Source: an uncultured Victivallis sp. | GTDB taxonomy: Bacteria > Verrucomicrobiota > Lentisphaeria > Victivallales > GWF2-50-93 | DNA length: 64,000 bases | Assembly (NCBI GenBank): GCA_964600895.1 | Contig: CAZRKP010000019.1 | Location: forward strand, 10,730 to 74,729 | Reading direction: 5' to 3' | Shown here: piece after piece, positions 24,867 through 63,669 of the stretch | Position numbering within the stretch: the first letter of the stretch is position 1 | Layout: each line of letters starts with the position of its first letter | The notes under the pieces: model-generated | Database searches by the model: none | Told to the model about the DNA's origin: nothing | What the model saw: only the letters and a program-made list of their open reading frames with translations | Translations under genes and position numbers: made by a program

Positions 24867-24942
24867 TTATTACCTCAAAAATAATTTGTTAGACAAAAGA
24901 GAATCATGAAAGAAACAAAAAATATAGTAAAATTCGGCAATT

Positions 24943-25768: not shown

Positions 25769-25773
25769 GTTTA

Positions 25774-29881: not shown

Positions 29882-29882
29882 T

Positions 29883-41578: not shown

Positions 41579-41638
41579 GACGGTTATTAAAAACAAATCC
41601 TCAATTTATTAGTCTCTCTATTCTTTCAAAAAAAGGGA

Positions 41639-48510: not shown

Positions 48511-50114
48511 TTTACAGGGAAAAGGTATTTTTCCATGAATTCAGTGTCTGGAAATTCAGGTTTTTTATCAAGCACCTCGAGAATTTCCTTTTGATTGAAT
48601 ATTGCCCTGTTGCGTTCGTCATATGTGCAATGGACTATCCTGCATCTTTTAGACATTGCCTCGTAGACGTCTGGGAACCATGGTTCCCAGCCAGCATCAA
48701 TATAGATAACTGTTTTGTTGGTACACATCGAATAATATAAAGTGGATGAACATCCATACTGTACTATTACTGCATCTGCTTGACCGATTACATTTGGAGA
48801 TTCAAAATGGTCATAGATTACTTTAAGGTTTGGTATTTTCTCAAAAATATTTAATCCTTCCCAGGATACGTCTTTTGGCCTCCGTTTGAAGATGATATTG
48901 TAGCCATTATCAGATAGGAATTTGCAAAGTTCATAGTAGAAATGATAGTTGACCATTACATCTGCAACGAAATAACCTGTCCATTCGGATATAAAAGAAA
49001 GTTCAAGGAGCATGACGGTCTTTATCTTGTCAGGAATAGGCTTGGATTTGTAAGAATCCCATAAAATTTTAAGATCAGGAGTGTTGTCTGTAATAAACTC
49101 TACTTTGTTTTTTCTGGGAATACTGTTGATTGAGACATTTCTTTTGTATTGTTCGATGTTTCCAGGGAAGTAAGAGACAAACTCATCGACTGTGGAGAGT
49201 TCATGAAATGGTAGACGAGATGCTGAGTAGTGGCAGATGAAATAGCTATGAGGGAATCCTGTAATCTTCCCGCCTTCATTTCTCACCGCAGTACTGAAAG
49301 CCCTGATATATTGACTGCCGGCGGTACATGTCATTGCATGTCTAATTTTCTTTCGTGCAGCAAGTATTCTCATGGAGGAATAGGCTAAAGCTATATCGCA
49401 AAGGTAGTTTTCAGAAAAGATTAGTAATGCATCGCAGATTATTTTCGGTAATTCAATCCCAAATACTTTTGATAAATATTCTTTAGCAAAATCTAACATT
49501 TCATGACTGAACTGCCTGAATATTTTCCTCGTTTTCAGAGATGGCTTTTCAGATACAGAATAATCCATTAGGAATCCAGGTGTTTCAAGTCGTATCCATC
49601 TATTGATTTCCTGCGCATAACGACGAGTGTATGTGTTGCCAAGAGAAATAGTAGTATCATTACTTATTATATGATTTGTGAAACAATACCTTCCATTTTT
49701 AAAATTTAGTTCAAGAGATTTAGCATAATTGTATATGCGTCTTTTCATCTTGTAATCTATATTTCTGAAACTATTAAAACTAAACAAAATGTTTTCACGA
49801 CTTCCATCAAGGTTTGGTATGAGGGAAAGTTTGTCACTGTATTTAAGTTTCCATGAAGACTGCTTTATTTTTTGTATCGCGGCATAATGATTTACAACTT
49901 CAGAAAATCTAGAAGATATCAGATATGCTATAAGAAGACAATCACCTTCAAAGGTTGCCCCATACTTTTCAATAAGCTTACAATGCTCGTTCTTAAAGTC
50001 AACAGTTATCTGAGTAGTAGTTTCCCTCGGAATGGCCCACCAAAAATCTTTAGACCATTCTTCGAAGTCTACACCTCTCAGTGCAAAATAGTCATAGTAA
50101 AATATTTTATCCAA
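48507..50114 (-). CDS. Hypothetical protein (535 aa), candidate novel transferase
   Basis: Long uninterrupted ORF, translationally coupled (ATGA) to the downstream radical SAM gene. The C-terminal half has a Rossmann-like alternation (KTVMLLELSF...IIFKRRPKD...ADAVIVQYGCSSTLYYSMCTNKTVIYID). No family motif I can name. Confidence 0.5.
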   Translation of the reverse strand: MDKIFYYDYFALRGVDFEEWSKDFWWAIPRETTTQITVDFKNEHCKLIEKYGATFEGDCLLIAYLISSRFSEVVNHYAAIQKIKQSSWKLKYSDKLSLIPNLDGSRENILFSFNSFRNIDYKMKRRIYNYAKSLELNFKNGRYCFTNHIISNDTTISLGNTYTRRYAQEINRWIRLETPGFLMDYSVSEKPSLKTRKIFRQFSHEMLDFAKEYLSKVFGIELPKIICDALLIFSENYLCDIALAYSSMRILAARKKIRHAMTCTAGSQYIRAFSTAVRNEGGKITGFPHSYFICHYSASRLPFHELSTVDEFVSYFPGNIEQYKRNVSINSIPRKNKVEFITDNTPDLKILWDSYKSKPIPDKIKTVMLLELSFISEWTGYFVADVMVNYHFYYELCKFLSDNGYNIIFKRRPKDVSWEGLNIFEKIPNLKVIYDHFESPNVIGQADAVIVQYGCSSTLYYSMCTNKTVIYIDAGWEPWFPDVYEAMSKRCRIVHCTYDERNRAIFNQKEILEVLDKKPEFPDTEFMEKYLFPVK

Positions 50115-50135: not shown

Positions 50136-51071
50136 TTATAAGATGTTTTGTTTAGATTTAAAAGTGGCAAAAATAGTGTCAGTAGATTTTATTTTTTCTA
50201 GGGTAAGAATATATTGTTCATCTATTATAGGAGTGATAATTTCAGATATTTCAGGCATTATTCCTGGTTTTCCTTTTGAAAGCCAGGAGATGTGATTTGA
50301 AAGAGGATATCGTTGCACATATCTGAAATTCTCTGGAATGAAATTGTTTCTACTGAAAAGGAGCCGTAATGATTTTTCAGCATATACAAAGTTATGCATG
50401 GGCTGGAAATAAAAATCCTTGTATTTTGAACAATTGTATATTCTAAGAAGAGGATCTGCAGAGCAGGGAACTTCTATGACTATTAGTCCACCAGGTTTCA
50501 GAATTCGGCGTATCGTCTTAAGAAATTTATGTGGGGTTCTGATATGCTCAAGAGTGTGGAACATAAAAATCCTGTCAAATGTCATCCCGGAAATTTGATC
50601 AATTGAGCTATAGCATGATATTCCAAATTTTCTTTCGGCAAATTCAAGGTGTTGCTTGCAAGATTCTAATAAAGCGGCTTTCTGAATTTTGCCGGATTCA
50701 TGAAGTTTGCCTATGAAGTTTCCGCAACCTCCACCTATCTCGAGTACTGAAGATCTTTTGTCAAGATATTTGTCGATAATCTTAAACCTGTATGCAGTAA
50801 CTTTCTCTCTACGGAGATAGGTTAGTTCTGGGGTCTCTCCGGAAGTTACACCCCTCGAGGAAAGATGATCTGCATAATTGTCATAATATTTTACAGAAGA
50901 TGCATCATCCATCATGGGATATAGAAAAAGGACTTCACACTTTTTGCATCTGAATACCTTTATATTTCTGGATTTCCAGCAATGTGGCCAAAAAAGTTTA
51001 GGTTCAGTTGCAGAACATAGTGGACAACGGAAGGGACTAATCATAATAATTCCCTTATGAATTGATTTCAA
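50136..51071 (-). CDS. Class I SAM-dependent methyltransferase with N-terminal zinc-ribbon-like CxxC pairs
   Basis: 311 aa. CPLCS...CKKCE, then the SAM motif VLEIGGGCGNF and ILKPGGLIVIEVP. The exact start is uncertain because there are several early Met codons. Confidence 0.8.
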   Translation of the reverse strand: MKSIHKGIIMISPFRCPLCSATEPKLFWPHCWKSRNIKVFRCKKCEVLFLYPMMDDASSVKYYDNYADHLSSRGVTSGETPELTYLRREKVTAYRFKIIDKYLDKRSSVLEIGGGCGNFIGKLHESGKIQKAALLESCKQHLEFAERKFGISCYSSIDQISGMTFDRIFMFHTLEHIRTPHKFLKTIRRILKPGGLIVIEVPCSADPLLRIYNCSKYKDFYFQPMHNFVYAEKSLRLLFSRNNFIPENFRYVQRYPLSNHISWLSKGKPGIMPEISEIITPIIDEQYILTLEKIKSTDTIFATFKSKQNIL

Positions 51072-51087
51072 AATGGAGATTTATATT

Positions 51088-52572
51088 CTAAGCATGGGTT
51101 ATAGGAGCACAGCCATTTATAAAGTTGCAAATGTGCTCTATTTCATCGTCTTTTAGCTCTGGATAAGAGGGTAAGTTTATCCCGTATGAAGACAAGTATT
51201 CACAGTTAGGGAGATTGATATTGGAGGCATATGGGGGCATTTTGTATATCGGATAAAAGAATGGCCTTGTCTCAATATTCTGCTTTTTCAAAACCTCTAT
51301 GAACGCATCTCTAGAGAGTCCGTTATAGGAACCGTTCTTCAAAACAATTGAAGACATCCAGCAAATATTAACAGACCAGTCGTTTCTGGGTGAGAATATG
51401 AAGTTGGTGTTGGAAGCGAGCATCTCTCTATACATGTTAGCTACTTGGAGTTTTCTTTGGAGTATTTCAGAAATCCTTTCAACCTGTGCAAATCCTATTG
51501 CAGCCTGAAGATTAGTCATCCTATAGTTAAAACCAACATACATGTGCCAATACTTTCGATGAGGATCCATGCCGTGGTCTCTTAGAATTTTTGCTTTTTC
51601 AAAAATTTCTCTGTCATTAGTAACCAACATTCCTCCTTCTCCAGTGGTTATTATCTTGTTGCCAAAAAAGCTGAAACAACCTATATTTCCTATTGAACCG
51701 ACATATCTTCCTTTGTATTTCGCACCATGCGCTTCAGCGGCATCTTCAATCACTATGAGTTTATGCTTCTTTGCCAAGGTCATGATTTCGTCCATCCTGC
51801 ATGGTTGGCCATATAGATGCACTGGTATTATAGCCTTTGTTCTAGGGGTGATAAGCTTTTCGATTGATGCCGGATCAATGTTCCAGGTGTCCATTTCTGA
51901 GTCAGCAAATACAGGCTTAGCACCGGTATATGTTACGGAGTTTGCTGTTGCGATGAATGTGAGACCTGGTATTATCACCTCGTCACCAGGCCCTATCCCA
52001 AGTGTGACAAGTGATAGATGCAAGGCTACCGTACCATTTGAAACTGCTAATGCATATTTCGAGCCTAGGAACGAAGAAAAACTTTCCTCGAACATCTTGA
52101 TATATTTGCCTTGAGAAGATATCCAATTCTCTTCAATGCAATCGCTTACATATTCCAACTCGGTGTTCTTTAGATCAGGCTTTGCTATTGGTATGAACTT
52201 GATGTCGTAATAGGAATAATATCCTGTTATTTTGCCTGTCAAGTCCTCCACAATAGGTATATAAAGCTTTTCTCCTAGGTTGTTGTTTGGACCGAGCTTA
52301 TCTAATATCATTCCAATATTCGTGCTAAGGTAAAAGAACAATGGTTTTTTAAACATAATTTCAGAAACCGGTTTGTCTGGAGATACTGAGGCAACGAATG
52401 CTCGACGAATATCACCTTCACTCAAAGTTCCGGTAAGCTTCCCTGCACTATCAAGAATGAATAATATGCACTTTCTGTTTAAGGCAAGTAGCTTTGTTGC
52501 ATCGCGGATACTACGGCTTTCCTCGCATATCATATCTGTCAGATCGGTAGTAAGCTTGATTTTTCTCATCAT
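51088..52572 (-). CDS. Fusion of a CBS-pair domain and a DegT-family sugar aminotransferase
   Basis: 494 aa. The first about 125 aa look like a CBS pair (RDATKLLALNRKCILFILDSAGKLTGTLSEGDIRRA...IPIVEDLTGKITGYYSYYDI). The remainder is a full DegT aminotransferase with SFFGNKIITTGEGG. Confidence 0.85.
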   Translation of the reverse strand: MMRKIKLTTDLTDMICEESRSIRDATKLLALNRKCILFILDSAGKLTGTLSEGDIRRAFVASVSPDKPVSEIMFKKPLFFYLSTNIGMILDKLGPNNNLGEKLYIPIVEDLTGKITGYYSYYDIKFIPIAKPDLKNTELEYVSDCIEENWISSQGKYIKMFEESFSSFLGSKYALAVSNGTVALHLSLVTLGIGPGDEVIIPGLTFIATANSVTYTGAKPVFADSEMDTWNIDPASIEKLITPRTKAIIPVHLYGQPCRMDEIMTLAKKHKLIVIEDAAEAHGAKYKGRYVGSIGNIGCFSFFGNKIITTGEGGMLVTNDREIFEKAKILRDHGMDPHRKYWHMYVGFNYRMTNLQAAIGFAQVERISEILQRKLQVANMYREMLASNTNFIFSPRNDWSVNICWMSSIVLKNGSYNGLSRDAFIEVLKKQNIETRPFFYPIYKMPPYASNINLPNCEYLSSYGINLPSYPELKDDEIEHICNFINGCAPITHA

Positions 52573-52579
52573 TTTATTC

Positions 52580-53488
52580 TCATAGGTGGTTGTTGATTAA
52601 TTTTGCCGCTGATTCAAGCGCCTCATCCTCTGATTTCCTCGCTTCAAGTGTGATGTTAAGTCCTTCACCTCTATTACCCGGACAATCCCTGAAAATTTTC
52701 AGTATATCCAATTGCCAGTCGCCAGAATTGGGTGCCAAGTGCTGGTCAAAGATGCCGTTGTTTGAAGAAATATGAAGTTCATATATCCTGTCACCATATT
52801 TTGAAATCATTTTGTCTATATAGCCTTCACGGCAGAAACTGAAATAATTCGCTGACATGTTCAAATGTCCAAGGTCGAGAAGTATTCCAGTATCGTCAGG
52901 TAATTTTTGTAGAAGAGCATCGAACTCCTCGAAGGTGCAGTTTAATGAACTCCTTCTTCCTTTTCCCCCAAGTATTGAGTCGTTTTCGAACAGATTTTCA
53001 ACAACGAGGGTGATTCCATATTTCGCAGCGATTTTATGAAGTTTTTCAAAATTGCCTACGAAGGTGGAAAACGCACATTCATATGAAATTTCACTTTTCA
53101 GGTGGAATCCAAAGTGGCCATCTGGCTTTTCATAAGCGTCAAGAAGATATCCTGGATGAAAAGAATAATATGACAAGTTATACCGTTTGCACAACATAAA
53201 TGCAGATTCTGCCATCTCAAAAGATTTTTCAGTGGTTGTCTTATCCCTTGAAGAAAAGGTTAGGACGAAACTTTTCTTAGGCGCAGGAAAGTATCCATGT
53301 ATCAGAATAGGGGTTTTTGTTGCAATATTGTCAAGCATGTTTTCAATTTCTCTTATCGGATAGTATTGAAAATTACCGCTAAACTCAATTCCATCTACGA
53401 ATGCAGGTATCCTTGAGGGATCCTCAAGAACATTATAGAGGAAGCATGTTGATGAAATGTAAATCCTGCGTTTAGATCCATTTACCAT
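52580..53488 (-). CDS. Xylose-isomerase-like TIM-barrel protein (sugar phosphate isomerase/epimerase family)
   Basis: 302 aa. Pattern YYSFHPG...LVVENL...LLDLGHLN...ELHISSN resembles the metal-ligand blocks of the AP_endonuc_2 TIM-barrel family. This is a moderate-confidence call made by eye. Confidence 0.55.
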   Translation of the reverse strand: MVNGSKRRIYISSTCFLYNVLEDPSRIPAFVDGIEFSGNFQYYPIREIENMLDNIATKTPILIHGYFPAPKKSFVLTFSSRDKTTTEKSFEMAESAFMLCKRYNLSYYSFHPGYLLDAYEKPDGHFGFHLKSEISYECAFSTFVGNFEKLHKIAAKYGITLVVENLFENDSILGGKGRRSSLNCTFEEFDALLQKLPDDTGILLDLGHLNMSANYFSFCREGYIDKMISKYGDRIYELHISSNNGIFDQHLAPNSGDWQLDILKIFRDCPGNRGEGLNITLEARKSEDEALESAAKLINNHL

Positions 53489-54186
53489 AGCAGTTCAGTT
53501 CCATCGAAGTTGAGGAATTTTCCAGTTTGCTTCATGCTTATTTTATCAATCAAATGTATTATCTTGACGCTTGCAGCAGTGGCTGTCATTTCGGCGTTCT
53601 TAGGTCCCATCTTTGTCTTCATGGTTCCAGGATGCAGGATGAACACAGGGATTTTTTCCGGTTTGAGCTCTTGTGCCAATATTCTTGCCATCATATTGAG
53701 AGAAGCTTTGCCGGCCTTGTATCCATATAGGCTTGAAAAGCCAGAAATTCTGCCTATTGCACCTGAAAGAGATGAAATAAATATTATTTTCGGACTGTTC
53801 GAGTTTTTTATAGATTTCAGCAAGGATTTTACCACAAACATAGGAGCAATTGCATTTATGGTCATGGATTCATGTATCTTTTTCCAGTCGAGCTCATCAA
53901 TACTCTCGTTTCTATGCATTATCCCTGCATTACTTATGAACACGTCTATCATTTCAGCATGCCTACTAACGATGGAAGAGAGCGAAGATATTCCGTTTTT
54001 GCATCGAAGGTCGACCTTTATGACATGGAGCATTCCAGGAAAGGACTTAACCTGTTGACGTAGCCTCGGAACTTCATTCCTGACACAGGCGAATACCATG
54101 CATCCTTCTTCAAGGTATCTTGATGCAAGTTCGAATCCTAGACCGCTTCCAGCACCGGTGATAAGGATTTTTCTGATTTGTGTCAT
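53482..54186 (-). CDS. Short-chain dehydrogenase/reductase (SDR)
   Basis: 234 aa. ILITGAGSGLG cofactor motif and YGYKAGK (YxxxK). Confidence 0.85.
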   Translation of the reverse strand: MTQIRKILITGAGSGLGFELASRYLEEGCMVFACVRNEVPRLRQQVKSFPGMLHVIKVDLRCKNGISSLSSIVSRHAEMIDVFISNAGIMHRNESIDELDWKKIHESMTINAIAPMFVVKSLLKSIKNSNSPKIIFISSLSGAIGRISGFSSLYGYKAGKASLNMMARILAQELKPEKIPVFILHPGTMKTKMGPKNAEMTATAASVKIIHLIDKISMKQTGKFLNFDGTELLW

Positions 54187-54197
54187 GCAGCAATTTC

Positions 54198-55247
54198 TTA
54201 TTGAGAACTCTTGAGTACTGGGGCGAATTCCCTCGAGTAGACAATATGGAAATTGTCTACATACTGGTCAAGTCCCTTGTAGGTATCCTTGGCATAAGGA
54301 AGCTCGCATACGGCGCAGTCATATCCTTGTGAAAGGCAATAGGAATATTCTCTGTCCAGATGGTTCTGCCTGAACATAAGCATTTTATTGCAGTTCCAGA
54401 CCTTCATAAGGTCGTAGTCTGGATCGTTCGCATTGCCGATACTGAATTTTGTTTTAAAATCATAAGGGCAGGGGTTGATGATTCCATCGTGCCTGAAGGT
54501 CATGTAAAACCAAGGATAAGCACATCCCTTATGAGGTTCAAGTTTCTTCTTTCCCTTTATGGACTCAACGGACTCCTTTGCAATTTTACTGTCGCCCTGG
54601 ATTGAGTAGAGCGGAGTCACAAAACAGCGGTCAACAATTGGTGTCCAGAACTCCTTGAAGGCTTGGCTTTCATGTTTGTTATAGCTTGATTCTACGCTCA
54701 TCACATTGATATAGCATTTTGTTTTCAGTTCTTTGTTCAGATCAATGAGATCAAGCAAGTTTTGCTTGACTTTTTTATAGCAGTCAACGCCGGTAATCTT
54801 CTTGTATGTCTCAGGACTGTGTGCATGGAGTGAAAACTGGATCTTCTTCATTCCTGCTTCAAGGAGCCTTTTAGAGAACTTCTTGTCCATGAGTGCGCCA
54901 TTTGTGATAATTGCACATTCTACACTTTTTGACTGAGCATATTCCACGAATTGTGGAAGGTTCCTGTTAACGGTCGGTTCACCTCGGCCGATTATGTTGA
55001 CAGGGGCACGGACATTGTATTTCGAAAGCGAATCAACAATTTTTTTCCAGAGTTCAAGGGACATATCACCGGGTTCCCCTCTGATCGCCTTGTCGGTACA
55101 CATTACACAGTTCAGGAAGCATCTATTTGTCGGTTCGATATAGAAATGGTTCGGAGGCACTGGACAGAACGCTTGTCTGTTCCTTATGCATTCAACTCTT
55201 TTCAGCTCTTCTTTGAGTGTAATCTCAAGGAGTTCCTGGATTTTCAT
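54198..55247 (-). CDS. Radical SAM enzyme with a Cys-rich SPASM/twitch-like C-terminal extension
   Basis: 349 aa. IEPTNRCFLNCVMC (CxxxCxxC). C-terminal cysteines HKGCAYPWFYMTFRHDGIINPCPYD...CAVCELPY. Confidence 0.8.
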   Translation of the reverse strand: MKIQELLEITLKEELKRVECIRNRQAFCPVPPNHFYIEPTNRCFLNCVMCTDKAIRGEPGDMSLELWKKIVDSLSKYNVRAPVNIIGRGEPTVNRNLPQFVEYAQSKSVECAIITNGALMDKKFSKRLLEAGMKKIQFSLHAHSPETYKKITGVDCYKKVKQNLLDLIDLNKELKTKCYINVMSVESSYNKHESQAFKEFWTPIVDRCFVTPLYSIQGDSKIAKESVESIKGKKKLEPHKGCAYPWFYMTFRHDGIINPCPYDFKTKFSIGNANDPDYDLMKVWNCNKMLMFRQNHLDREYSYCLSQGYDCAVCELPYAKDTYKGLDQYVDNFHIVYSREFAPVLKSSQ

Positions 55248-55270
55248 TTCTTTTTCTCCGTTTGGTTTTA

Positions 55271-56308
55271 TTAGACTCTGTAGTTTCCTTCCTTCGATCC
55301 TACCAGCTTCGCGGGATTTCCTGCGACTATGGAGTTAAGGGGAAAGTTCTTTGTGACGACCGAACCTGCGGCAACAACCGAGTTATTGCCAAGTTTAACA
55401 TTCTTAAGTATTCTTGCACCTGCACCGATCCACACATGATCATGCAGCACGATTGCAGCACGCTTGACATCGCTGTCCGAAATTGTCATCCTATGGAAGT
55501 CTGTATCAATGAATTCGACATCCCAGGATATGGCGCAGTTTCTTCCTATCTTAATGCTTTTCTCTACGAATATTTTGGTGTTGAATGCGATATATGTGCC
55601 ATCCCCGATGGAAAGTTCAGCCCCTGGAAAGATGTTGATCCTAATCCCGCTGTAGAGAGTTATGCTGCCCATGCATTTGAAAGTTGCGCCCCTGTGTATC
55701 CTTATGACGGTACCTCCATACTCTCTAATGCCTTCCCAGTCAGGAGGAACATGCCCAATCCTCAGCACAGACTCTGGACTCATCTCGAATTTTCCACCTT
55801 CGTCGACAATGATCTGGCAGTTTCCAGTGAAGATCACCCTGCTTGTCTGAGGGCAGTATTTCCTTGAAAAGGCAATGCTTTTTCTCATGTTGGCATCACC
55901 GCGATATAACCGTTTAATATTCTTTGAAAACGTATCCCTTTTTCTGGCAGGGGTGGCTATGCTGTGATTGACATTCATGTTCCCATCCACTGCTCCATAA
56001 CGTACAGACCTTATCTTGTTAAGAAGGAATGCATCGACCTCTTCATACCCGTCACCATTGTTTTTGTATAGAGAAAATGCAAGGTCCATCCCAGGTAACT
56101 TTTCGAAGAACTCGTCTGGAGCAGCTAGATTGAAGTCGCGATAAGGATATTCTATGATTTTCAGGTAGTCCAGTCCCTTGAAAACCTCAATCATATTTCT
56201 CTGTACGAGGAGATGAAGTTTTGCGCCTGGAAATTCAGCCCGGAGTTTCTCAAGCGCACTATAGACAGTTTTGACGTCAGCAGATCTAAGAAGTAATATG
56301 TTTTTCAT
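55271..56308 (-). CDS. Two-domain protein: unknown N-terminal domain + C-terminal LbH (hexapeptide) acyltransferase
   Basis: 345 aa. C-terminal IGRNCAISWDVEFIDTD...VWIGAGARILKNVKLGNNSVVAAGSVVTKNFPLNSIVAGNPAKLV. The track ORF 55262..55867(+) is its antisense shadow. Confidence 0.75.
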   Translation of the reverse strand: MKNILLLRSADVKTVYSALEKLRAEFPGAKLHLLVQRNMIEVFKGLDYLKIIEYPYRDFNLAAPDEFFEKLPGMDLAFSLYKNNGDGYEEVDAFLLNKIRSVRYGAVDGNMNVNHSIATPARKRDTFSKNIKRLYRGDANMRKSIAFSRKYCPQTSRVIFTGNCQIIVDEGGKFEMSPESVLRIGHVPPDWEGIREYGGTVIRIHRGATFKCMGSITLYSGIRINIFPGAELSIGDGTYIAFNTKIFVEKSIKIGRNCAISWDVEFIDTDFHRMTISDSDVKRAAIVLHDHVWIGAGARILKNVKLGNNSVVAAGSVVTKNFPLNSIVAGNPAKLVGSKEGNYRV

Positions 56309-56318
56309 TTTTGCACCT

Positions 56319-57227
56319 TCAATAGGAGAAATCTATCTTGCATGCCTTGAATCCGAATGTACGGCTGAATTTTTCGGTCTGGATTTCAACCTTCGCAGAA
56401 GAGCCAATATCTTTGAATATAATTTTTGATTTCTTGTCACCAGTTTTGGAAATGATTTTCTCGGCGACCTGTCGGTATGAGAAATTCCTATGGCATCCTA
56501 AATTATAGGTTCCAGGAACTGGCCTTGAGATTATTTTCCGTATACCTCCAGCGATATCGTCTACATGGATGAAGTTACTGACCCTCTCTCCTTTGCCGAA
56601 AAGTGTGATGGTGTTCTTCTCTGAAAGTTCCTTTCTAAAGATCCCGATCAGTCTGTCATCCTGCATTCCGGGTCCGTATACCTGCCCGAGCCTAAGATTT
56701 ACGACATTCGGCCTGCCGTTCAGTATGAAGTTGAATATCACTTCCGAACTGAACTTTGCCAGGCCATAAAGACATTCAGTGTTACCGGACATGCCGATCT
56801 TGGACTCTTCGCTGTATTTGCCATTCTTGTTCGGATATACTGCAATGCTGGAAAGATTTACTACAATACGGCATCCGAGCTCTTCGGCTAGCCATGCAGC
56901 GTTCTCACTAATCCTGTTGTTGAGATAGAGATATGCGAAATTCCTCCAGTCACCAGCCTTACAGAGAATGAAGGCAGTATGGATCATCGCGTCAATACTT
57001 GTCCTGCAAAGTTTTTTTGCTAGTTTCCTGGTTTCTGTGGAATTCGTAAGATCGACGAAAAACAGATCCTTGCCGTTCGGATCAGAATATCTGGGCCATT
57101 CAAGCCTTAGTATCCTGTTATTCATGTAAAGGGCTTTTAGGAGATGCCTACCTATGAATCCGTTTGCTCCTGTCAGCAGAATTGTCATCGGTTTAGTCAT
57201 TGCTATCCTCGACAAAATATTCCTCAA
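56319..57227 (-). CDS. NAD-dependent epimerase/dehydratase (extended SDR)
   Basis: 302 aa. ILLTGANGFIGRHL and YGLAK (YxxxK). The start could be ATG 57200 or 57188 instead of 57227. Confidence 0.8.
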   Translation of the reverse strand: MRNILSRIAMTKPMTILLTGANGFIGRHLLKALYMNNRILRLEWPRYSDPNGKDLFFVDLTNSTETRKLAKKLCRTSIDAMIHTAFILCKAGDWRNFAYLYLNNRISENAAWLAEELGCRIVVNLSSIAVYPNKNGKYSEESKIGMSGNTECLYGLAKFSSEVIFNFILNGRPNVVNLRLGQVYGPGMQDDRLIGIFRKELSEKNTITLFGKGERVSNFIHVDDIAGGIRKIISRPVPGTYNLGCHRNFSYRQVAEKIISKTGDKKSKIIFKDIGSSAKVEIQTEKFSRTFGFKACKIDFSY

Positions 57228-58179
57228 GATATCTCAGCACTTTACCGTATTTCATGTTGAATTTGGGGAGCTTTATTCCAAGGAGATGCTTGATGGTGTA
57301 TTCTACTTCGTTAATCCCGAAGAAGCATCTTACATATGTTGTGCCGGAAAATCTGGCGTTAATCTCGAAGAGTTTCGGTTTCCTCCCATCATTATCAAGC
57401 CTTAACTGGTAGTTACATGGTCCAAAAGGCTTAAGTTTCTCTGATATCATAGTGATGTAATCGTAAATGGTTTTTGGGGTGTTGGGTGAGTTATATGCTG
57501 CATATGTGTTTCCATGCCTAAGGGTCCTACGAAGACTTATTGATGTCTTCACTTCATCTTCAAAGAACAATACTCCACAGGTGTATTCGTCAGACATTCT
57601 GCCGACATTCTCCTGTATCACTGGTTTTTTTAATGTTTTCAGCGTATGCATGAGTTCTCGGCGATTCTTTACAAGAGAAAGACCTCGACTACCTGAACTC
57701 GTCCTAGGCTTGACAATCGCAGGATAACGCACCTTGTCAATTTCATTGGGAAGCCATGTATCTGGACAGGAAATCCCCTTTTTCTTGAGAAATAGATATG
57801 TCTTATATTTGTCCTCTGCAACATCTATTACTTTTTCACTGCTGACAATGACAGTGCATCCTGTCTCATGCTCAATGATCCTTCTATTCTTAGCTAAAAC
57901 TTCCAGCTCGAAGCCCATTCCCACGAAAAGTAATTTCAATCTATGCTTCTTTATATAAAAGATGAGAGCTTCGATAAAGGAGTCTATTTGTGTTTTATCC
58001 TTAAGTATGTCGGGCATGATGTATGTTCTGTTTACCCAGTGAGAACCAAGAGTGCCGTCGAAATATTCGAAACCTGTAATATCTGTCTTTTCGGAAAGAT
58101 CTGATTTTCTGATGGATCTGATGATTCCTTGCCCGACGAGGGAATCTACGCAGGTTATTCCGATATTGATCTTCTTCAT
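57193..58179 (-). CDS. ATP-grasp ligase
   Basis: Start set at ATG 58179 (MKKINIG), which forms an ATGA overlap with the PHP gene stop. YPAIVKPRTSSGSRG and KLFEINARFSGT are ATP-grasp signatures. Confidence 0.8.
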   Translation of the reverse strand: MKKINIGITCVDSLVGQGIIRSIRKSDLSEKTDITGFEYFDGTLGSHWVNRTYIMPDILKDKTQIDSFIEALIFYIKKHRLKLLFVGMGFELEVLAKNRRIIEHETGCTVIVSSEKVIDVAEDKYKTYLFLKKKGISCPDTWLPNEIDKVRYPAIVKPRTSSGSRGLSLVKNRRELMHTLKTLKKPVIQENVGRMSDEYTCGVLFFEDEVKTSISLRRTLRHGNTYAAYNSPNTPKTIYDYITMISEKLKPFGPCNYQLRLDNDGRKPKLFEINARFSGTTYVRCFFGINEVEYTIKHLLGIKLPKFNMKYGKVLRYLEEYFVEDSND

Positions 58180-58892
58180 TTGCCCACCCGATGTTTCCTT
58201 AGTAGTTTCAGGCATTCTCCTGTTTCCGAAACGTTGTGAGCGTCTGAGCCTATCGATATTGCCGGATTATACTTCTCCAGTAGCACAAGCAGTTCTTTGA
58301 TGATGTTGGAATGGTATCTTGAATTGATCTCGAATGCGGTTTCAGTAGCTGCACATTTTAAGATTAAATCTTCCATAAGATCCATGCTGAACCCTCCGGC
58401 AAAGGAATTGGACATTCCTCCAACATGGCCAAGAATATCGGCCTGTCCTGATTTCAATAGTCCCAAGTAGAGCCTGTATTCGCACTCCTGAAGCTTTTCC
58501 AGTGGTTTGAAGAATTCGGGATGGAGGAATTTACCATTATCAACGGGGATGCTGTGTACGCTGCCTATTATCAAATGCTTGTTTCTGGAACAATATTCTG
58601 GGATATCGAGATTTCCGTTAAAATCCTTGATCTTGGCCTCGAAGCCGGCATAAAGTTCAATTTTAGAATTTCTTGCTATAGTCTTGATTTCCCCTACAAA
58701 ATCCTTGCAGTAGGAGGAATTCTTTCTGACATGGTCAGTAAAAGCTATCATCCTTAATCCTTTTTCTACTGCCACATCCAGCATTTCCACTGAAGTGTTT
58801 TCTCCATCCGTCCAAACAGTATGAATATGCATGTCAGAAAGCAAATCGAACTTAGAAAGAGTCCTGAATCTCTTGAAAATGGGCTTGTTCAT
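58176..58892 (-). CDS. PHP-domain (histidinol-phosphatase-like) metal-dependent phosphoesterase
   Basis: 238 aa. DMHIHTVWTDG, IAFTDH, GSVH, GHVG, IGSDAH follow the PHP His/Asp ligand pattern. ATGA overlap with the NeuB-family gene stop. Confidence 0.75.
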   Translation of the reverse strand: MNKPIFKRFRTLSKFDLLSDMHIHTVWTDGENTSVEMLDVAVEKGLRMIAFTDHVRKNSSYCKDFVGEIKTIARNSKIELYAGFEAKIKDFNGNLDIPEYCSRNKHLIIGSVHSIPVDNGKFLHPEFFKPLEKLQECEYRLYLGLLKSGQADILGHVGGMSNSFAGGFSMDLMEDLILKCAATETAFEINSRYHSNIIKELLVLLEKYNPAISIGSDAHNVSETGECLKLLRKHRVGK

Positions 58893-59926
58893 TTTAATGT
58901 CTTGAAGTCGAAAAGATCTTCTTTGCTGAGATTAACGAGTAACTTTCTGCCGATGACATTGTCCATTTTGCACGGTGGAATGCCGGTTCCGGGTCGCTTT
59001 GCAACTATATGTTTCCTCGTAATCACCGTACCTACTTTTATATCACATGCCGCCATCAGGCTTCGTCTCATGTGTTTTGCATTATCGAGCTCAGCCTGCT
59101 GTATTTTCTTGTTCCTGCAACCGAGACCTGCTTCGACCTGCCTTATGCCTTTTACCATTTCTCTGAGTTCCTGAGGTTCGATCGATGCTGGTTGGTCGAC
59201 TCCTGGGAGATTTCTGCTGAGCGTGAAATGCTTTTCGAGAATCTTTGCACCGAGTGCGGCAGCGGCAATGCCCATGTAAATTCCTTTGCTGTGATCGGAG
59301 AATCCAACAGGGCACTTGAACTCCTTGTGTAGAATTTCCATCGCACGCATATTCAGGTCTTTGTATGGAGTAGGATACTGTGCCGTGCATTGCATGAGGG
59401 CAAATTGTCTTCCCCCGTTCTTTAGATATGTTTCAATGCCATGGCGGATTTCCGGTATGGTCGACATTGCCGTTGAAAATATAGCAGGAATTCCAGTCTC
59501 ACCCAAGGCCGAAAGCAGGTAGTCGTTGTTCATATCAGCCGACGCGATCTTTATCGCTTCTGAACCGATGTCCGATAGGATCGCAAGGCCATCGATATCG
59601 CAGGCGGTCGATAGGAATTCAATCCCGATCTCCTTGCAGGCATCCTTAAGGTCCTTGAACTGTTCCTTAGTAAACTGTATAGAATCATAGAAATCCTTCT
59701 TTGTCCTGTACCTGTGACGGCCTTTGAAATATTCAGGCATCGTTGAATTTTTTGATTCACTCGATTCATATGTGAATGTTTGGAATTTCACGCAGTTCGC
59801 GCCTGATTCTTTAGCTTTCCTAATGAGATGGATGGCCTGGTCGAAATTCCCGTTGTGGTTTACTCCAGCTTCCGCAATAATGAAGACATGCTTGTTCTTC
59901 AATATGTTTTTATCAAACCAGTTCAT
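58889..59926 (-). CDS. neuB: Nonulosonic acid synthase (NeuB/LegI/PseI family) with C-terminal SAF domain
   Basis: 345 aa. FIIAEAGVNHNGNFDQAIHLIRKAKESGANCVKFQTF, GFSDHS, and a C-terminal SAF-like AACDIKVGTVITRKHIVAKRPGTGIPP. The symbol denotes the family only. Sugar specificity is unknown. Confidence 0.9.
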   Translation of the reverse strand: MNWFDKNILKNKHVFIIAEAGVNHNGNFDQAIHLIRKAKESGANCVKFQTFTYESSESKNSTMPEYFKGRHRYRTKKDFYDSIQFTKEQFKDLKDACKEIGIEFLSTACDIDGLAILSDIGSEAIKIASADMNNDYLLSALGETGIPAIFSTAMSTIPEIRHGIETYLKNGGRQFALMQCTAQYPTPYKDLNMRAMEILHKEFKCPVGFSDHSKGIYMGIAAAALGAKILEKHFTLSRNLPGVDQPASIEPQELREMVKGIRQVEAGLGCRNKKIQQAELDNAKHMRRSLMAACDIKVGTVITRKHIVAKRPGTGIPPCKMDNVIGRKLLVNLSKEDLFDFKTLK

Positions 59927-60647
59927 TTAGTTTCTCCATTATTGCATTGCATATTATAAGGTCCTTCTGTGTGTCTATGTCCATGGAATATAAAGGATCA
60001 GTCGCTAGAAGCTTCATCTTTTTCCCATATAGAGGACCACCAGCAAGGATAGTGCTTACTTTGATCACATCGACAAGTCCGTTAAGCGAGTAAGCAGGAG
60101 GGAGAAGTTGGCGCTGGTGGTATTTTTTTATGTCTATACCATCGACGAACGGCGAAGCTATTCCTTTGGAGTCAGCTTTGTACATCCAATAAGGATGGTG
60201 CTTGCCTTGGATCATGTCAACTGTTCTCAAGGAATCGCAGTCGCATGAGTTAATTGCTCTTATGGCTTCTGAAACATGGACTGCTTTTCTAAGAGGAGAT
60301 GTACAGCGAAGATTCACGATGTAATCGCACTCATAGCCCTCCTTCTCCTTAAGCCATTCGATTAGATGAATCATTACTGGGCGATCCGGGGTATCTGACT
60401 GAGCAATTTCATTAGGACGCATGAATGGAACTTCAGCACCATATTTCCTGCCAATATTAGCGATTTCTTCGTCGTCGGTACTAACAATTACACGGTCGAG
60501 TTCAGGGCATTCCAGTCCAGATTTGATGGCGTAATATATAAGAGGTTTACCACAGAGAAGTGCAAGGTTTTTCATTGGTATGCCTTTGGAGCCCCCTCTG
60601 GCCATAACAATTGCAACTATTTTAACAGATTTTGATTTGATAGACAT
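59913..60647 (-). CDS. neuA: Acylneuraminate (nonulosonate) cytidylyltransferase (NeuA/LegF/PseF family)
   Basis: 244 aa. VAIVMARGGSKGIPMKNL and the family-typical VSTDDEEI. The symbol denotes the family only. Confidence 0.9.
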   Translation of the reverse strand: MSIKSKSVKIVAIVMARGGSKGIPMKNLALLCGKPLIYYAIKSGLECPELDRVIVSTDDEEIANIGRKYGAEVPFMRPNEIAQSDTPDRPVMIHLIEWLKEKEGYECDYIVNLRCTSPLRKAVHVSEAIRAINSCDCDSLRTVDMIQGKHHPYWMYKADSKGIASPFVDGIDIKKYHQRQLLPPAYSLNGLVDVIKVSTILAGGPLYGKKMKLLATDPLYSMDIDTQKDLIICNAIMEKLNELV

Positions 60648-60649
60648 TA

Positions 60650-61996
60650 TTAGATTTTAACCGAGTTGACAAGAGAAGATGAAATCAGTTTGTGATTTTC
60701 AGGATCTTTAAGTATGTTTTCAATAACATGATCAAATTCTTCGTGGGCTCTTGCAAGCAATTCATCGTAGATAAAAAAACCATAATCATTTTCAATCGAA
60801 TCCCTGTTCCTAAACTTTCTGTATTTTAAATTAAGATAATCCAAGGTTCTTATAATCCTGAAAGGAAGAATGGATCTCATGGGGGATTTAGAAGGATTTT
60901 TATTTAGAGTATTAACAATATCAAGAGCAACCTTTAAAATTGATGAACCTTCGCTTTTTAAGTCATAGATCTCATGAATAAGATGTTCGGTAGATTCATC
61001 GTAGAATGTCAACTTGTCGTAATGGGATATTTTATAGTAAAGATCATCGAAATTGCAAGGTGTATTGTTTGATACAGATGTTAATAGCTGGGAAGGAACT
61101 ATATCGCTATATATTTTAAGATCGGACCCGCATAACTGAGTTAAATTTATAAAAGGTATTTTCGCGATTGCAAGAAGAGAGATAGTTGTAGAGATGCCAT
61201 TCCCAATTATAATATCCTGCTGGCCAGCCCATGTGGAAAAATCAAAAGATTCATTAATTGAAATATTATTAGTCTTTATATAGTTAATATCCTGATAGAG
61301 GTTCTTTTTTTCAAGAGGATATGGACGGAGGCTAATCTCATATTTATCTTTATCAAGAGTGCTAATAATATCAAGCATGATTTTTAAGTATTTAATCTGT
61401 AGAAATATCTCCTCCCATGTATAGATGTCATCCTTTTTGTCATAAAGGTGCTTAAGAAGGTAAAGATCCTTTTTTGTAGAATTAATCAGCCAGAAACTTC
61501 CTATAAATCCAATTTTAATTTTTCCAGTCTTATTTCGTTTTCTTCTGAATTTAATAATGTCTCCTCGCATATTTCCCACTACTTTAAATATTGAATCAAA
61601 CAATTCTTCTTTTGCCCCCGGGTTTTTCATATAAATATTAAATAAATGTTTTCTAGGTATCTCGCCCCAGAGATGAATCCGTGAAAATTTACATAGAAAT
61701 TCAGGATCAGAAGTTATTTTTGATTCATTTATATGGTAGGTGACGCTGCCTTCTGCAGAACACATAAATGGCATTGCATTAGGATAAGATTTAATAAGTT
61801 TTTCGGCTTTTGATGGTGTAACAAAAAAAACAGCATCAGGATTCCAAAGCTTGATGGGAATGGACGCAATGTTTGCATTATTCGCAATAATGCACTTGCA
61901 ACCGAAACGTTCCAGTAAACGAGAAAGAATAAATGAAATACCGAAATCGCGATTGAAAGTCATTGAATGTATAAGGATTTTCCAGTTCTTATTCAT
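60650..61996 (-). CDS. Hypothetical protein (448 aa), candidate nonulosonate transferase or other surface-carbohydrate enzyme
   Basis: Long ORF starting 3 nt after the cytidylyltransferase gene. Rossmann-like segments (KIKIGFIGSFWL..., DIIIGNGISTTISLLAIAKIPFINL). No motif I can assign. Confidence 0.5.
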   Translation of the reverse strand: MNKNWKILIHSMTFNRDFGISFILSRLLERFGCKCIIANNANIASIPIKLWNPDAVFFVTPSKAEKLIKSYPNAMPFMCSAEGSVTYHINESKITSDPEFLCKFSRIHLWGEIPRKHLFNIYMKNPGAKEELFDSIFKVVGNMRGDIIKFRRKRNKTGKIKIGFIGSFWLINSTKKDLYLLKHLYDKKDDIYTWEEIFLQIKYLKIMLDIISTLDKDKYEISLRPYPLEKKNLYQDINYIKTNNISINESFDFSTWAGQQDIIIGNGISTTISLLAIAKIPFINLTQLCGSDLKIYSDIVPSQLLTSVSNNTPCNFDDLYYKISHYDKLTFYDESTEHLIHEIYDLKSEGSSILKVALDIVNTLNKNPSKSPMRSILPFRIIRTLDYLNLKYRKFRNRDSIENDYGFFIYDELLARAHEEFDHVIENILKDPENHKLISSSLVNSVKI

Positions 61997-62038
61997 ATAA
62001 TAGTTTAGTTTTAATTGTTAACATGTAAAAAATGGTAT

Positions 62039-62998
62039 TTAATCGTTAATGGTATAATCATAACATCCAGAGCAAAGTGGCAATTCGTCATGGCGCATTT
62101 CAGCTAGCATTTTACGATATGTCATCATTTTTTTTGATATCCATATTTCTTTTAAGGTGTTTGTTTTTAAATCTCCAACAAGCATCTTATTGTCATAGTC
62201 GAAACAACAAGCACTTACTGTGCCGTCCCAGTTTATTGAAAGTTTATCAAATACTTCTGGACATTCAACATGCTTCCTTAATACGGTGTCTTTACTTTTT
62301 AAATAAAGTAATAAAGATTTTTTATTATCATCAAGGGTTGTTTCGTCAGGATCTATGTGATTAAATAAAGTTTTACCAATTGATAAAAGGTCAACATAAT
62401 CTTTAATTGATTTCTTAAAAAGTTCTATCTGCTTCGCTGTCTCATATGTAGTTGTAGTTGAGAGATGGATGTAGGGCAGAATGCTGTTTCCACGTTTGGC
62501 GTATAGTAATTTGACCCTGCTGATAAGCTCATCAAAGAAATCAATGTTGCGGGTTTCGGAGTAGCTTATTGTATCAATACCCTGAAATGAAAATTTTATA
62601 CTGTCCAATTTGATTTCCAATAATTTATCAATCATCTTTTCATCAAGCATACTGCCATTAGTATTAATATGGACAATTGAACCATGATGCTTAAGTTCTG
62701 TGACATACTCGATTAACCTTGGATGAAGAAAGGGTTCTCCCCATCTTATGAGTCGCACGGGAGTTTTGTAATGGGTTATTTGGTCAAGAATATTCTTATA
62801 AGTGTTATGGTTCATAACACCTTTCTGTCTTTTAACTGTTCCAAGGCCTGTTGGGCACATCAAGCATTGAAAATTGCATAAGTTAGTTAATTCGAGATCA
62901 ATGTATCTTGGAAAAGGGGGTAATGAATTGAGTTTTTCCATCGAATTACCCTTATTGCATGCGTCATATATTGATTTAAATGGATTGATCCTTTTCAT
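62039..62998 (-). CDS. Radical SAM / SPASM-domain enzyme, second copy
   Basis: 319 aa. LELTNLCNFQCLMC (CxxxCxxC). C-terminal VECPEVFDKLSINWDGTVSACCFDYD...LPLCSGCYDY. Confidence 0.8.
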   Translation of the reverse strand: MKRINPFKSIYDACNKGNSMEKLNSLPPFPRYIDLELTNLCNFQCLMCPTGLGTVKRQKGVMNHNTYKNILDQITHYKTPVRLIRWGEPFLHPRLIEYVTELKHHGSIVHINTNGSMLDEKMIDKLLEIKLDSIKFSFQGIDTISYSETRNIDFFDELISRVKLLYAKRGNSILPYIHLSTTTTYETAKQIELFKKSIKDYVDLLSIGKTLFNHIDPDETTLDDNKKSLLLYLKSKDTVLRKHVECPEVFDKLSINWDGTVSACCFDYDNKMLVGDLKTNTLKEIWISKKMMTYRKMLAEMRHDELPLCSGCYDYTIND

Positions 62999-63096
62999 AA
63001 TAAATATGAAAATCCTTTATGATTAATAATATTTATAAGACAAAAGAAATTTCTGACCAAAATAAACATATGTAAAATATTAATGAAATAAATGAA

Positions 63097-63645: not shown

Positions 63646-63669
63646 AAAAATACCTTATTAAATAAATTA

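Follow-up and report, generated by a model that had tools for sequence, protein, structure and literature searches.

The ten-gene module

We describe a ten-gene module for synthesis of a nonulosonic acid (NulO), found in a stretch of 64,000 nucleotides (nt) from an uncultured Victivallis sp. (contig CAZRKP010000019.1), which as a whole we refer to as the window. The genes lie on the minus strand in the order NeuA-like cytidylyltransferase, NeuB-family synthase, PHP-family phosphoesterase, ATP-grasp ligase, extended short-chain dehydrogenase/reductase (SDR), beta-helix acyltransferase, radical SAM enzyme, classical SDR, TIM barrel protein and a DegT aminotransferase fused to a pair of CBS domains (Table 1). 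A preliminary description had reported these ten genes, and their positions and domain assignments are all confirmed by the open reading frame (ORF) list and by Pfam and NCBIfam scans, for which scores are given below in bits against the curated cutoffs. Our preferred reading, put forward as a tentative one, is that these genes make up the core of a pathway of the legionaminic acid (Leg) type, in a variant that is horizontally mobile, leading to a 5,7-diamino NulO, with acylation at N7 that depends on the ATP-grasp enzyme, an acyltransferase slot for decoration, and tailoring by radical SAM, SDR and TIM barrel enzymes specific to one clade of synthases.

The genes are tightly packed, with intergenic distances of -14 to +23 nt. 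NeuA and NeuB overlap by 14 nt, and there are overlaps of 4-8 nt at the NeuB/PHP, PHP/ATP-grasp and ATP-grasp/SDR junctions, a pattern typical of translational coupling. The catalytic motifs are intact, with CxxxCxxC in the radical SAM enzyme, HxH...DxH in the PHP protein, GxxGxxG and YxxxK in the SDRs, and the metal-binding histidines in NeuB. For two of the genes a shorter form is preferred by gene callers and by comparison with homologues, of 293 amino acids (aa) for the extended SDR (56319-57200) and 328 aa for the ATP-grasp protein (57193-58179, probable start M13). Scans for promoters and terminators gave nothing above the level of shuffled sequence.

GC content at third codon positions is 0.40-0.51 in the block from NeuA to the classical SDR (53482-60647) as against 0.28-0.34 in the flanking cluster genes, which suggests acquisition of this block as a cassette. 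In the genome backbone (1-16 kb) the GC content is about 0.47-0.49, and the glycan cluster in which the module lies is compositionally mosaic.

Table 1. Genes of the module and its conserved neighbours, in window coordinates
Feature	Position	Strand	Family or remark
Conserved 448-aa protein directly upstream of NeuA	60650..61996	-	Candidate transferase
NeuA-like CMP-ulosonic acid synthetase	59913..60647	-	CTP_transf_3, Pfam PF02348
NeuB-family ulosonic acid synthase, divergent clade	58889..59926	-	NeuB+SAF
PHP-family metal-dependent phosphoesterase, ATP-grasp partner	58176..58892	-	PF02811
ATP-grasp carboxylate-amine ligase	57193..58215	-	NF009402
Extended SDR, epimerase/reductase type, third cassette member	56319..57227	-	PF01370, RmlD_sub_bind
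Left-handed beta-helix acyltransferase	55271..56308	-	Hexapep; N-terminal extension of about 200 aa; C-terminal half WbbJ-, WcaF- and NeuD-like; variable decoration slot
Radical SAM enzyme (rSAM1), twitch/partial SPASM	54198..55247	-	Radical_SAM+SPASM
Classical SDR, variable slot	53482..54186	-	adh_short
Xylose-isomerase-like TIM barrel, predicted metal-dependent sugar enzyme	52580..53488	-	AP_endonuc_2, PF01261
CBS pair fused to DegT/LegC-like sugar aminotransferase	51088..52572	-	DegT_DnrJ_EryC1 (430 bits), plus CBS
SAM-dependent methyltransferase after the aminotransferase gene	50136..51071	-	Methyltransf_23, Methyltransf_11
Conserved 535-aa protein closing the module	48507..50114	-	Candidate glycosyltransferase or polymerase

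Conservation of the module in other lineages

Relatives of the ATP-grasp protein were sought by a degenerate-pattern scan with one genome per species, and were found in 572 species-level genomes. The 80 best ATP-grasp loci were labelled by phmmer, loci from other look-ups were added, and the contigs of the window organism itself were excluded. We divide the loci into those with the radical SAM enzyme (class a, eight independent loci), those with NeuB and without the radical SAM enzyme (class b, 34 loci) and those without NeuB (class c, 43 loci); the counts cover flanks of about 10 kb, and the loci were sampled by different routes and are not an unbiased survey.

At least eight lineages, independent of one another and belonging to different phyla, share this gene order, and given this recurrence the arrangement is not due to chance. 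The module is kept together in Victivallales, Lentisphaeria, Desulfobacteraceae, Fundidesulfovibrio magnetotacticus, Solidesulfovibrio alcoholivorans and a marine lineage, the recurrent unit in Lentisphaerota, Desulfobacterota and the marine lineage being NeuB-PHP-ATP-grasp-SDR-radical SAM-TIM barrel. The full consensus order starts with a protein of about 446 aa, NeuA, NeuB, PHP, ATP-grasp and extended SDR, continues with a variable slot, the radical SAM enzyme, a second variable slot and the TIM barrel, and ends with a nucleoside diphosphate (NDP)-sugar 6-dehydrogenase carrying a CBS pair, an SDR resembling LegB, GMD or UXS, an optional methyltransferase, DegT, a protein of about 540 aa, and AsnB with an ABC transporter. 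The first variable slot holds the beta-helix acyltransferase in the window, a methyltransferase in L094 and a carbamoyltransferase in the marine relative L095. The second holds a classical SDR in Lentisphaerota, and unrelated proteins of 320-392 aa in Desulfobacterota and the marine locus.

The limits given to the module in the preliminary description prove too narrow, as it has conserved partners on both sides. Homologues of the 448-aa protein are in the same place in L006, L007 and L009, and homologues of the 535-aa protein, with 37-78% identity, follow the aminotransferase in L009, L010, L094 and L095. Neither protein has a match in Pfam, NCBIfam or the PDB, even with family profiles, and both are candidates for new ulosonic-acid transferases or polymerases. 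The methyltransferase that follows the aminotransferase gene has homologues in the corresponding place in L007/L010, L088 and L094.

The aminotransferase is where the window differs from most relatives. The window and its closest relative, Victivallis L009, in which the orthologue is 86% identical, have the single CBS-DegT protein in place of dehydrogenase, SDR and DegT, and it is these three, with the dehydrogenase carrying the CBS pair and the SDR being LegB-like, that the other relatives have at this position. Origin of CBS-DegT by deletion and fusion of the three genes was considered and is not supported: its CBS part has just 31-33% identity to the CBS pairs of the PtmE-like nucleotidyltransferase (see below) and the dehydrogenase alike, and its DegT part is as far from DegT366 (39%) as from LegC (37%). 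An N-terminal CBS pair is thus present on three different pathway-entry enzymes of related clusters, namely DegT, the PtmE-like nucleotidyltransferase (L091:6966-8033) and the NDP-sugar 6-dehydrogenase (L007:17412-19085), which suggests a shared module for allosteric control.

Relationship to known NulO enzymes

The synthase scores 349.8 on the NeuB_NnaB model TIGR03569 (cutoff 399.65) and lower, at 256.8, on the PseI model (cutoff 340.25). For CBS-DegT, in which the N-terminal CBS pair is atypical, the best family is LegC (TIGR04181, 376.5, cutoff 420), with PseC at 287, and it is 37% identical to the bona fide LegC of the Arcobacteraceae locus L025. These best matches, to LegC for the aminotransferase and to NeuB/LegI rather than PseI for the synthase, are among the points in favour of a pathway of legionaminic type. 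The NeuA-like protein has the ARGGSKG motif and gives 128 on the PseF model (cutoff 205.7), and its gene is kept beside NeuB in five of eight related loci.

The reading in the preliminary description requires that the synthase should not cluster inside a characterised NeuB, LegI or PseI clade, and in line with this it is under the cutoffs of the equivalog models and has a clade of its own in a neighbour-joining tree. Members of this clade have at least 52% identity to the window NeuB and the next homologues at most 48%. The clade includes relatives from Victivallales (83%) and Lentisphaeria (73%), and also from Desulfobacteraceae, F. magnetotacticus and an Oligoflexia metagenome-assembled genome (MAG). 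In the tree, which carries no bootstrap values, this one clade takes in every synthase that has a radical SAM partner, and is separate from the NeuC-linked synthases of LegI type and from PseI, SpsE and Leptospira NeuB. The synthase is consistently tied to an aminotransferase, the radical SAM enzyme and, except in Oligoflexia L089, the ATP-grasp cassette. With regard to active-site residues, E25, K53, Q55, K129 and S132 of the Neisseria meningitidis enzyme are retained and E134 is replaced by aspartate (D131).

The genes do not correspond to any of the three textbook routes in full. There is no LegB (TIGR04180) in the module, the extended SDR giving only 17.9 on that model and being without the Asp-Glu pair of the dehydratases. 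The pseudaminic acid (Pse) route is not represented in the window, where the PseB model reaches 176 (cutoff 407.75) on a PglF-like gene only, and Pfam scans of the window found no Glyco_tran_28-type protein as expected for PseG. Nor is this the Neu5Ac route of NeuC, NeuB and NeuA alone, the synthase being under the NeuB equivalog cutoff and tied to the tailoring genes named above. There are two beta-helix acyltransferases near the module, that in the first variable slot and another at 63097-63645, and both resemble the O-acetyltransferases WbbJ and WcaF as much as NeuD.

A NeuC-type epimerase beyond the end of the window

The core argument of the preliminary description for a new route was that there is no hydrolysing 2-epimerase. 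Within the window that observation is sound: there is no NeuC, LegG or PseG, and the only Epimerase_2 gene (13361-14461), which holds the block HIEAGMRSFNKKMPEEINR, is a true WecB of the non-hydrolysing type (TIGR00236, 342.4, cutoff 210.15; NeuC model 88.2, cutoff 235.9). No other Epimerase_2 protein is present among ORFs of at least 150 aa from 8.7 to 64 kb of the window.

However, the cluster does not end with the window. By looking up the acyltransferase at 63097-63645 we found overlapping contigs from independent assemblies, one of which, L091, is 100% identical to window positions 61712-64000 (2.3 kb) and runs 9.6 kb past position 64000. On the strand of the module it has, in order, WbqC, a B12-radical SAM methyltransferase, a methyltransferase, a divergent DegT, an Epimerase_2 protein, PIG-L, a second CTP_transf_3 protein, a CBS-nucleotidyltransferase and a carbamoyltransferase, the last with its 3' end inside the window. 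The Epimerase_2 gene (L091:4359-5558) is of NeuC type, with 376.6 on TIGR03568 (cutoff 235.9) as against 71 on the wecB model. It lies 4.1-5.3 kb past the window end and about 8 kb upstream of NeuB, and is co-directional with it. The CBS-nucleotidyltransferase (L091:6966-8033) is PtmE-like and is 1.6-2.7 kb past the window end. The stretch from the divergent DegT to the PtmE-like gene (L091:3298-8033) corresponds to about 65.6-70.3 kb in window numbering. In a second assembly, L092, the gene order is the same, the ORF at the epimerase position being partial and known by position alone.

With a NeuC-type gene in the same cluster, the argument from a missing hydrolysing epimerase fails for this genome, and since the epimerase is present the finding is less radical than first proposed. 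By the terms of the preliminary description, its reading would be refuted by an epimerase just outside the window together with a synthase tightly inside a characterised clade; the former is what we find, and the latter is not, as discussed above. We infer that the NeuC-type and PtmE-like genes are used by the module in this genome. There is a caution here for scans based on windows, as the gene declared missing was 4 kb past the edge.

The ATP-grasp cassette

The ATP-grasp protein is the only protein of the module above its family cutoff (NF009402, PRK12767.1-1, "carbamoyl phosphate synthase-like protein", 269.8, cutoff 218). Its AlphaFold2 model has a mean predicted local distance difference test score (pLDDT) of 92.7, the nearest structure being 2pn1, itself uncharacterised, and fold neighbours with TM-scores of 0.70-0.76 are PurK, PurT, biotin carboxylase, PylC and amino-acid ligases. 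The PHP protein, which has all of the PHP metal motifs, is encoded directly upstream of it in loci of classes a, b and c. The extended SDR, which has TGxxGxxG and YxxxK and no Asp-Glu dehydratase pair, follows it in seven of eight class a and 30 of 34 class b loci. We treat PHP, ATP-grasp and extended SDR as a cassette, and it is a widespread one.

In the class b loci, most of which are otherwise canonical Leg clusters, the cassette is set between LegC and LegI. In L025 the scores are well above the cutoffs (LegC 576 against 420, NeuB 526 against 399.65, NeuC 489 against 235.9), and PtmE-like and NeuA-like genes are also present. The compact loci L022 and L023 (Sulfuricurvum) have all of the Leg enzymes except LegH, with PHP-ATP-grasp-SDR filling the gap between LegC and LegI; in L022 the order is Maf, DUF2920, LegB-like, LegC, PtmE, PHP, ATP-grasp, SDR, LegI, NeuC, NeuA, FlaG, FliD, FliS. 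Pfam scans found no acyltransferase in the genes flanking the L022 and L023 cassettes, and 25 of the 34 class b loci are without any beta-helix acyltransferase. The presence of the ATP-grasp gene at the LegH position where LegH is absent argues that its product N-acylates the 4-amino sugar. Judged from these sequence contexts, the ATP-grasp enzyme most likely uses ATP to couple a free acid to the 4-amino group of the nucleotide sugar, later N7 of the NulO. N-acylation by this enzyme had been suggested in the preliminary description, and in view of the Leg loci lacking LegH it is now the best-supported role for it.

In L022, from a Firmicutes MAG, the cassette is inside a flagellin glycosylation island (L022:2597-18288, with Maf-like, DUF2920, FlaG, FliD, FliS and FlgN proteins), and the modified Leg sugar there probably decorates flagellin.

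The partners of the ATP-grasp gene in class c are PglF-like dehydratases and DegT, to which PHP, WbqC, FemAB-like and PIG-L genes are often added, and this agrees with a general function in varying the N-acyl groups of 4-amino sugars. These loci are also the basis for a different view of the module, in which two unrelated pathways are adjacent: NeuA and NeuB would with the upstream NeuC, PtmE and second NeuA-like gene (NeuA2) make an ordinary Leg- or Neu-type sugar for a glycan, to which the genes from PHP to CBS-DegT would contribute a different sugar, an N-acylated 4-amino-4,6-dideoxy hexose. The 43 loci with ATP-grasp, often with PHP and DegT, and no NeuB are as this would predict, examples being in sphingomonads, cyanobacteria such as Chlorogloeopsis fritschii, and Sinorhizobium/Ensifer, near PglF-like dehydratases and GT4 genes. 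However NeuB, PHP, ATP-grasp and SDR genes are contiguous with 4-8 nt overlaps in every class a locus, the cassette is between LegC and LegI in flagellin islands such as L022, where the only transferase is of Maf type and LegH is absent, and the radical SAM and TIM barrel genes are found only beside this NeuB clade. We thus regard two separate pathways as improbable, and agree with the preliminary description that the additional enzymes are part of the NulO module, with which they are syntenic across phyla.

The position of the PHP gene, directly after NeuB with a 4-nt overlap in all class a loci, raises the question of a sugar-phosphate route. Condensation of a hexose 6-phosphate with phosphoenolpyruvate (PEP) is the reaction of animal NANS and of Bacteroides Kdn-9-P synthase. 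By analogy NeuB would condense PEP with ManNAc-6-P or Man-6-P, the PHP protein would be the NulO-9-phosphate phosphatase, and no hydrolysing epimerase would be needed. The aspartate at the E134 position could be seen in the same light, as this substitution is described for archaeal and eukaryotic synthases (PMC8208679), but Leptospira NeuB (structure 6ncs) also has Asp there. In class b loci PHP always adjoins ATP-grasp and is separated from NeuB by at least two genes, and the pair is also present in 16 loci without NeuB. As PHP follows ATP-grasp rather than NeuB, we rejected it as a 9-phosphate phosphatase. The LegC-like aminotransferase also points to a diamino sugar. A start from ManNAc-6-P, which had been among the earlier suggestions, is thus disfavoured and the sugar-phosphate route very improbable.

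The radical SAM enzyme and TIM barrel protein

The radical SAM enzyme has CxxxCxxC at Cys 43/47/50 and five conserved C-terminal cysteines (242, 260, 304, 311 and 314). Matches to Radical_SAM and SPASM make it a SPASM/twitch member, and the best curated subfamily gives 94.6 (cutoff 380). The family is rare, with 31 clusters at E<=1e-20 in 5.8 billion proteins. Between Lentisphaerota and Desulfobacterota its orthologues have 64-69% identity, as compared with just 55% for NeuB. The AlphaFold2 model (pLDDT 90.4) has DesII and BtrN as nearest folds, with peptide maturases, BlsE, MoaA, EpeE and viperin close behind. The TIM barrel protein has conserved Glu, Asp and His metal-site residues and belongs to a small subfamily (26 representative clusters at 1e-30 or better). 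A PDB profile search does not allow a reaction to be assigned, the best relative being the uncharacterised MJ1311 (3wqo, 3.6e-9), followed by weak matches to endonuclease IV, TM0416 and IolE.

The distribution of these genes differs between the classes. The TIM barrel is in seven of the eight class a loci and in none of the 34 of class b, and conversely NeuC is near none of the eight and 30 of the 34 (Fisher p = 4e-6), and PtmE near none of the eight and 27 of the 34. The pattern is suggestive, within the limits that the flanks are short and the sampling mixed, and that the Victivallis genome itself has NeuC 8 kb from NeuB.

The main rival to our preferred reading starts from this pattern. The radical SAM enzyme, TIM barrel and a reductase would replace the 2-epimerase and nucleotidyltransferase, one possible mechanism being radical- or keto-assisted elimination of the nucleotide at C1 with re-protonation of C2 from the opposite face; the upstream NeuC, PtmE, NeuA2 and PIG-L would then belong to a second NulO pathway. 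In addition to the distribution, there is no Epimerase_2 gene in views of about 25 kb of F. magnetotacticus and the marine lineage, and no NeuC in 21 kb of S. alcoholivorans, in which the cluster begins right after ParA-like genes. In Oligoflexia L089 the radical SAM gene stays with the NeuB clade although the ATP-grasp trio and TIM barrel are absent, and is the only accessory enzyme left. The folds nearest to the radical SAM enzyme include radical enzymes acting on sugars or nucleotides (DesII, BtrN, BlsE, viperin) and the epimerase EpeE, and Victivallis L009 has a second NeuB, NeuA2 and PIG-L upstream, which makes it plausible for two NulO pathways to occur together. However in the Victivallis genome described here NeuC and PtmE are in the same co-directional cluster as the module, with NeuC 8 kb upstream of NeuB, and there is no second NeuB in the sequence covered by the window and the L091 extension. 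Absence within about 10 kb elsewhere is not absence from those genomes, and the counts, from loci sampled in different ways, are not unbiased. The TIM barrel has no informative relative and the proposed chemistry is purely inferential. We consider a NeuC-independent route unlikely, and the specific proposal that the radical SAM enzyme substitutes for NeuC/LegG, freeing and epimerising the nucleotide sugar together with the TIM barrel and reductase, a little less likely still. If it were true, this NeuB clade would define a fourth, NeuC-independent NulO route, presumably an oxygen-sensitive one.

There is a second SPASM enzyme at 62039-62998 (319 aa), of a different family and only 23% identical to that of the module. 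Small SPASM enzymes like it are found beside the second NeuB in L007 and near NeuA in Omnitrophota L017.

A proposed pathway and the points against it

In the legionaminic-type pathway that we prefer, the PtmE-like enzyme would make a nucleotide-activated N-acetylhexosamine, which the NeuC-type enzyme would later release and 2-epimerise; the positions of both genes are observed. A 4-keto-6-deoxy intermediate would be formed, with the PglF-like protein of 9652-11631 as candidate dehydratase, and CBS-DegT, to judge from its similarity to the LegC family, would aminate C4. The ATP-grasp enzyme, on the evidence of its genomic position, would ligate a carboxylic acid to the 4-amino group, later N7, replacing or supplementing the acetyl-CoA-dependent LegH. 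By analogy the PHP protein may strip off a phosphate borne by that acid, for example 3-phosphoglycerate, PEP or phosphoserine, and the extended SDR may tailor the acylated product. The beta-helix acyltransferase probably decorates a hydroxyl, since relatives have methyl- or carbamoyltransferases in its slot. The radical SAM enzyme, classical SDR and TIM barrel would carry out one or more additional redox, elimination or epimerisation steps specific to the clade. NeuB would join the free aldose to PEP and NeuA give the CMP-sugar, and the 448-aa and 535-aa proteins are candidates for transfer of the sugar to a glycan that the ABC transporter at 41639-43411 would export.

Several points weigh against this pathway. 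No module component reaches the NCBIfam equivalog cutoffs for Leg, Neu or Pse enzymes. The PglF-like gene is the sole candidate in the window for the 4,6-dehydratase and is about 40 kb away. Fold comparison of the ATP-grasp protein does not single out an acid substrate among the candidates, and the roles given to PHP and the extended SDR are by analogy. As there is no NeuC or PtmE within about 10 kb of the module in the eight related loci, the upstream NeuC in this genome might serve a second NulO pathway. Lastly, most relatives carry the CBS-NDP-sugar 6-dehydrogenase and GMD/UXS-like SDR that are absent from the window, and the precursor may thus differ between variants of the module. In most class a relatives DegT gives 299 on the ArnB model and the UXS-like SDR has an SSSEVY motif. 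By analogy, and as speculation, their dehydrogenase, UXS-like SDR and ArnB-like DegT could feed a pentose to the synthase, in which case the route in these relatives might go via a 4-amino pentose to an eight-carbon analogue.

The surrounding glycan cluster

The module is part of a larger glycan cluster, whose genes, over 45 in number, all run the same way along the minus strand between about 8.7 kb and the end of the window. Among them are PglF-, PglE- and PglC-like genes, wecB, a WbpB/D/E-like trio, several GT4 genes, methyltransferases and an ABC exporter. The trio (GFO, LbH and DegT, 23763-26766) resembles the WbpB/WbpD/WbpE enzymes by which 2,3-diacetamido uronic acids are made. Our scans of the whole window turned up no NDP-sugar 6-dehydrogenase. 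Within the cluster there is a calcineurin-like metallophosphoesterase of 511 aa (31076-32611).

The cluster has two B12-binding radical SAM enzymes (40064-41596 and 47023-48510). Genes of this kind adjoin NeuA/NeuB here, with another at L091:696-2471, and also in L007, L088 and L095/L097. That of L091, the only one scanned, is of the KedN5-like C-methyltransferase type, and the B12-binding enzymes could C-methylate the ulosonic acid. There are five AsnB-like glutamine amidotransferases (20807-22675, 27968-29920, 34450-36285, 36291-38144 and 38148-40019), which implies heavy amidation or amidino modification of the sugars, and three carbamoyltransferases (17071-20352, 32635-34398 and 63670-64000), one of them of 1093 aa with an N-terminal GDSL-like domain.

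Significance

Nonulosonic acids decorate flagella, capsules, S-layers and lipopolysaccharide, and govern motility, phage susceptibility and immune recognition. The diversity of their N-acyl groups is known chemically, but its genetic basis is poorly understood, and for the non-acetyl N7 substituents of legionaminic acids the ATP-grasp/PHP/SDR cassette may supply that basis. The radical SAM and TIM barrel pair marks a separate clade of synthases, so far mainly in lineages of anaerobes, and is a testable candidate for new radical chemistry on sugars. Cultured carriers are available for such work, namely S. alcoholivorans and F. magnetotacticus for the module, and Sulfurimonas or Oceanihabitans for the cassette. 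That unexplained NulO chemistry is an active question can be seen from a 2026 preprint (bioRxiv 10.64898/2026.04.20.719630).

Comparison with known systems

Full-text literature searches, in which some matches were judged by title, gave no link of nonulosonic acids or NeuB to this ATP-grasp, PHP or radical SAM protein. Papers that name both ATP-grasp and legionaminic acid do so in separate contexts, and those pairing radical SAM with NeuB seemed from their titles to concern other subjects. There are several systems with which parts of the module can be compared.

In the capsule cluster of Campylobacter jejuni, the C-terminal part of Cj1438 is an ATP-dependent amidoligase with a phosphorylated co-substrate, the phosphate being removed later by the phosphatase Cj1435 (PMC11800397). 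The likeness, which is by description, is in having an amide-forming ATP-dependent ligase and a phosphatase within a glycan cluster, and it provides a precedent for attaching a phosphorylated partner and dephosphorylating it afterwards. However the Campylobacter phosphatase is of the HAD family and that of the module a PHP protein, and in Campylobacter the sugar (GlcA) supplies the carboxylate, with serinol or ethanolamine phosphate as the amine, whereas in the module the amine is most likely on the sugar.

For the radical SAM enzyme the best matches by sequence and fold are BtrN, the 2-deoxy-scyllo-inosamine dehydrogenase (1e-8 by sequence, 2e-11 by Foldseek), and DesII, which acts on TDP-4-amino-4,6-dideoxyglucose (2e-12 by Foldseek). 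All three have CxxxCxxC and a C-terminal auxiliary-cluster domain, and the DesII substrate and the LegC product are intermediates of one class. However identity is only 15-18% with TM-scores of 0.5-0.6, and the maturases CteB and SuiB, which act on ribosomally synthesised and post-translationally modified peptides, score nearly as high.

The preprint cited above describes in Ca. Kuenenia stuttgartiensis a Leg-related cluster that has two legF-like genes, and a deacetylase and a formyltransferase amid the leg genes, and also gives mass-spectrometric evidence from Magnetospirillum for CMP-ulosonic acids of higher carbon number (C10) that are as yet unexplained (bioRxiv 10.64898/2026.04.20.719630). 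Like the Victivallis genome, with its PIG-L and two NeuA-like genes, the Kuenenia cluster is from the PVC superphylum and combines a deacetylase with two genes for the cytidylyltransferase step; it differs in that the description, compared by text only, is without ATP-grasp, PHP, radical SAM or TIM barrel proteins.

Most class a relatives carry in order an NDP-sugar 6-dehydrogenase, a GMD/UXS-like SDR and DegT, as in the Ugd, ArnA (dehydrogenase domain) and ArnB series for UDP-4-amino-4-deoxy-L-arabinose. All three genes are absent from the window, which has the single CBS-DegT instead.

A last comparison is with the CMP-legionaminic acid pathway of C. jejuni (LegB, LegC, LegH, LegG, LegI and LegF, with PtmE for the GDP-linked route). 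The module differs from it in having no LegB-type dehydratase, in that the LegH role is apparently taken by ATP-grasp/PHP/SDR, in the addition of radical SAM, TIM barrel and classical SDR enzymes, and in that the synthase and aminotransferase are under the equivalog cutoffs, the synthase being in a separate clade. The two are alike in the LegC-like aminotransferase, a synthase on the NeuB/LegI side and the CMP-transferase, and in the NeuC/LegG-type epimerase and PtmE-like CBS-nucleotidyltransferase just upstream of the module, and the class b relatives are bona fide Leg clusters with the same ATP-grasp cassette.

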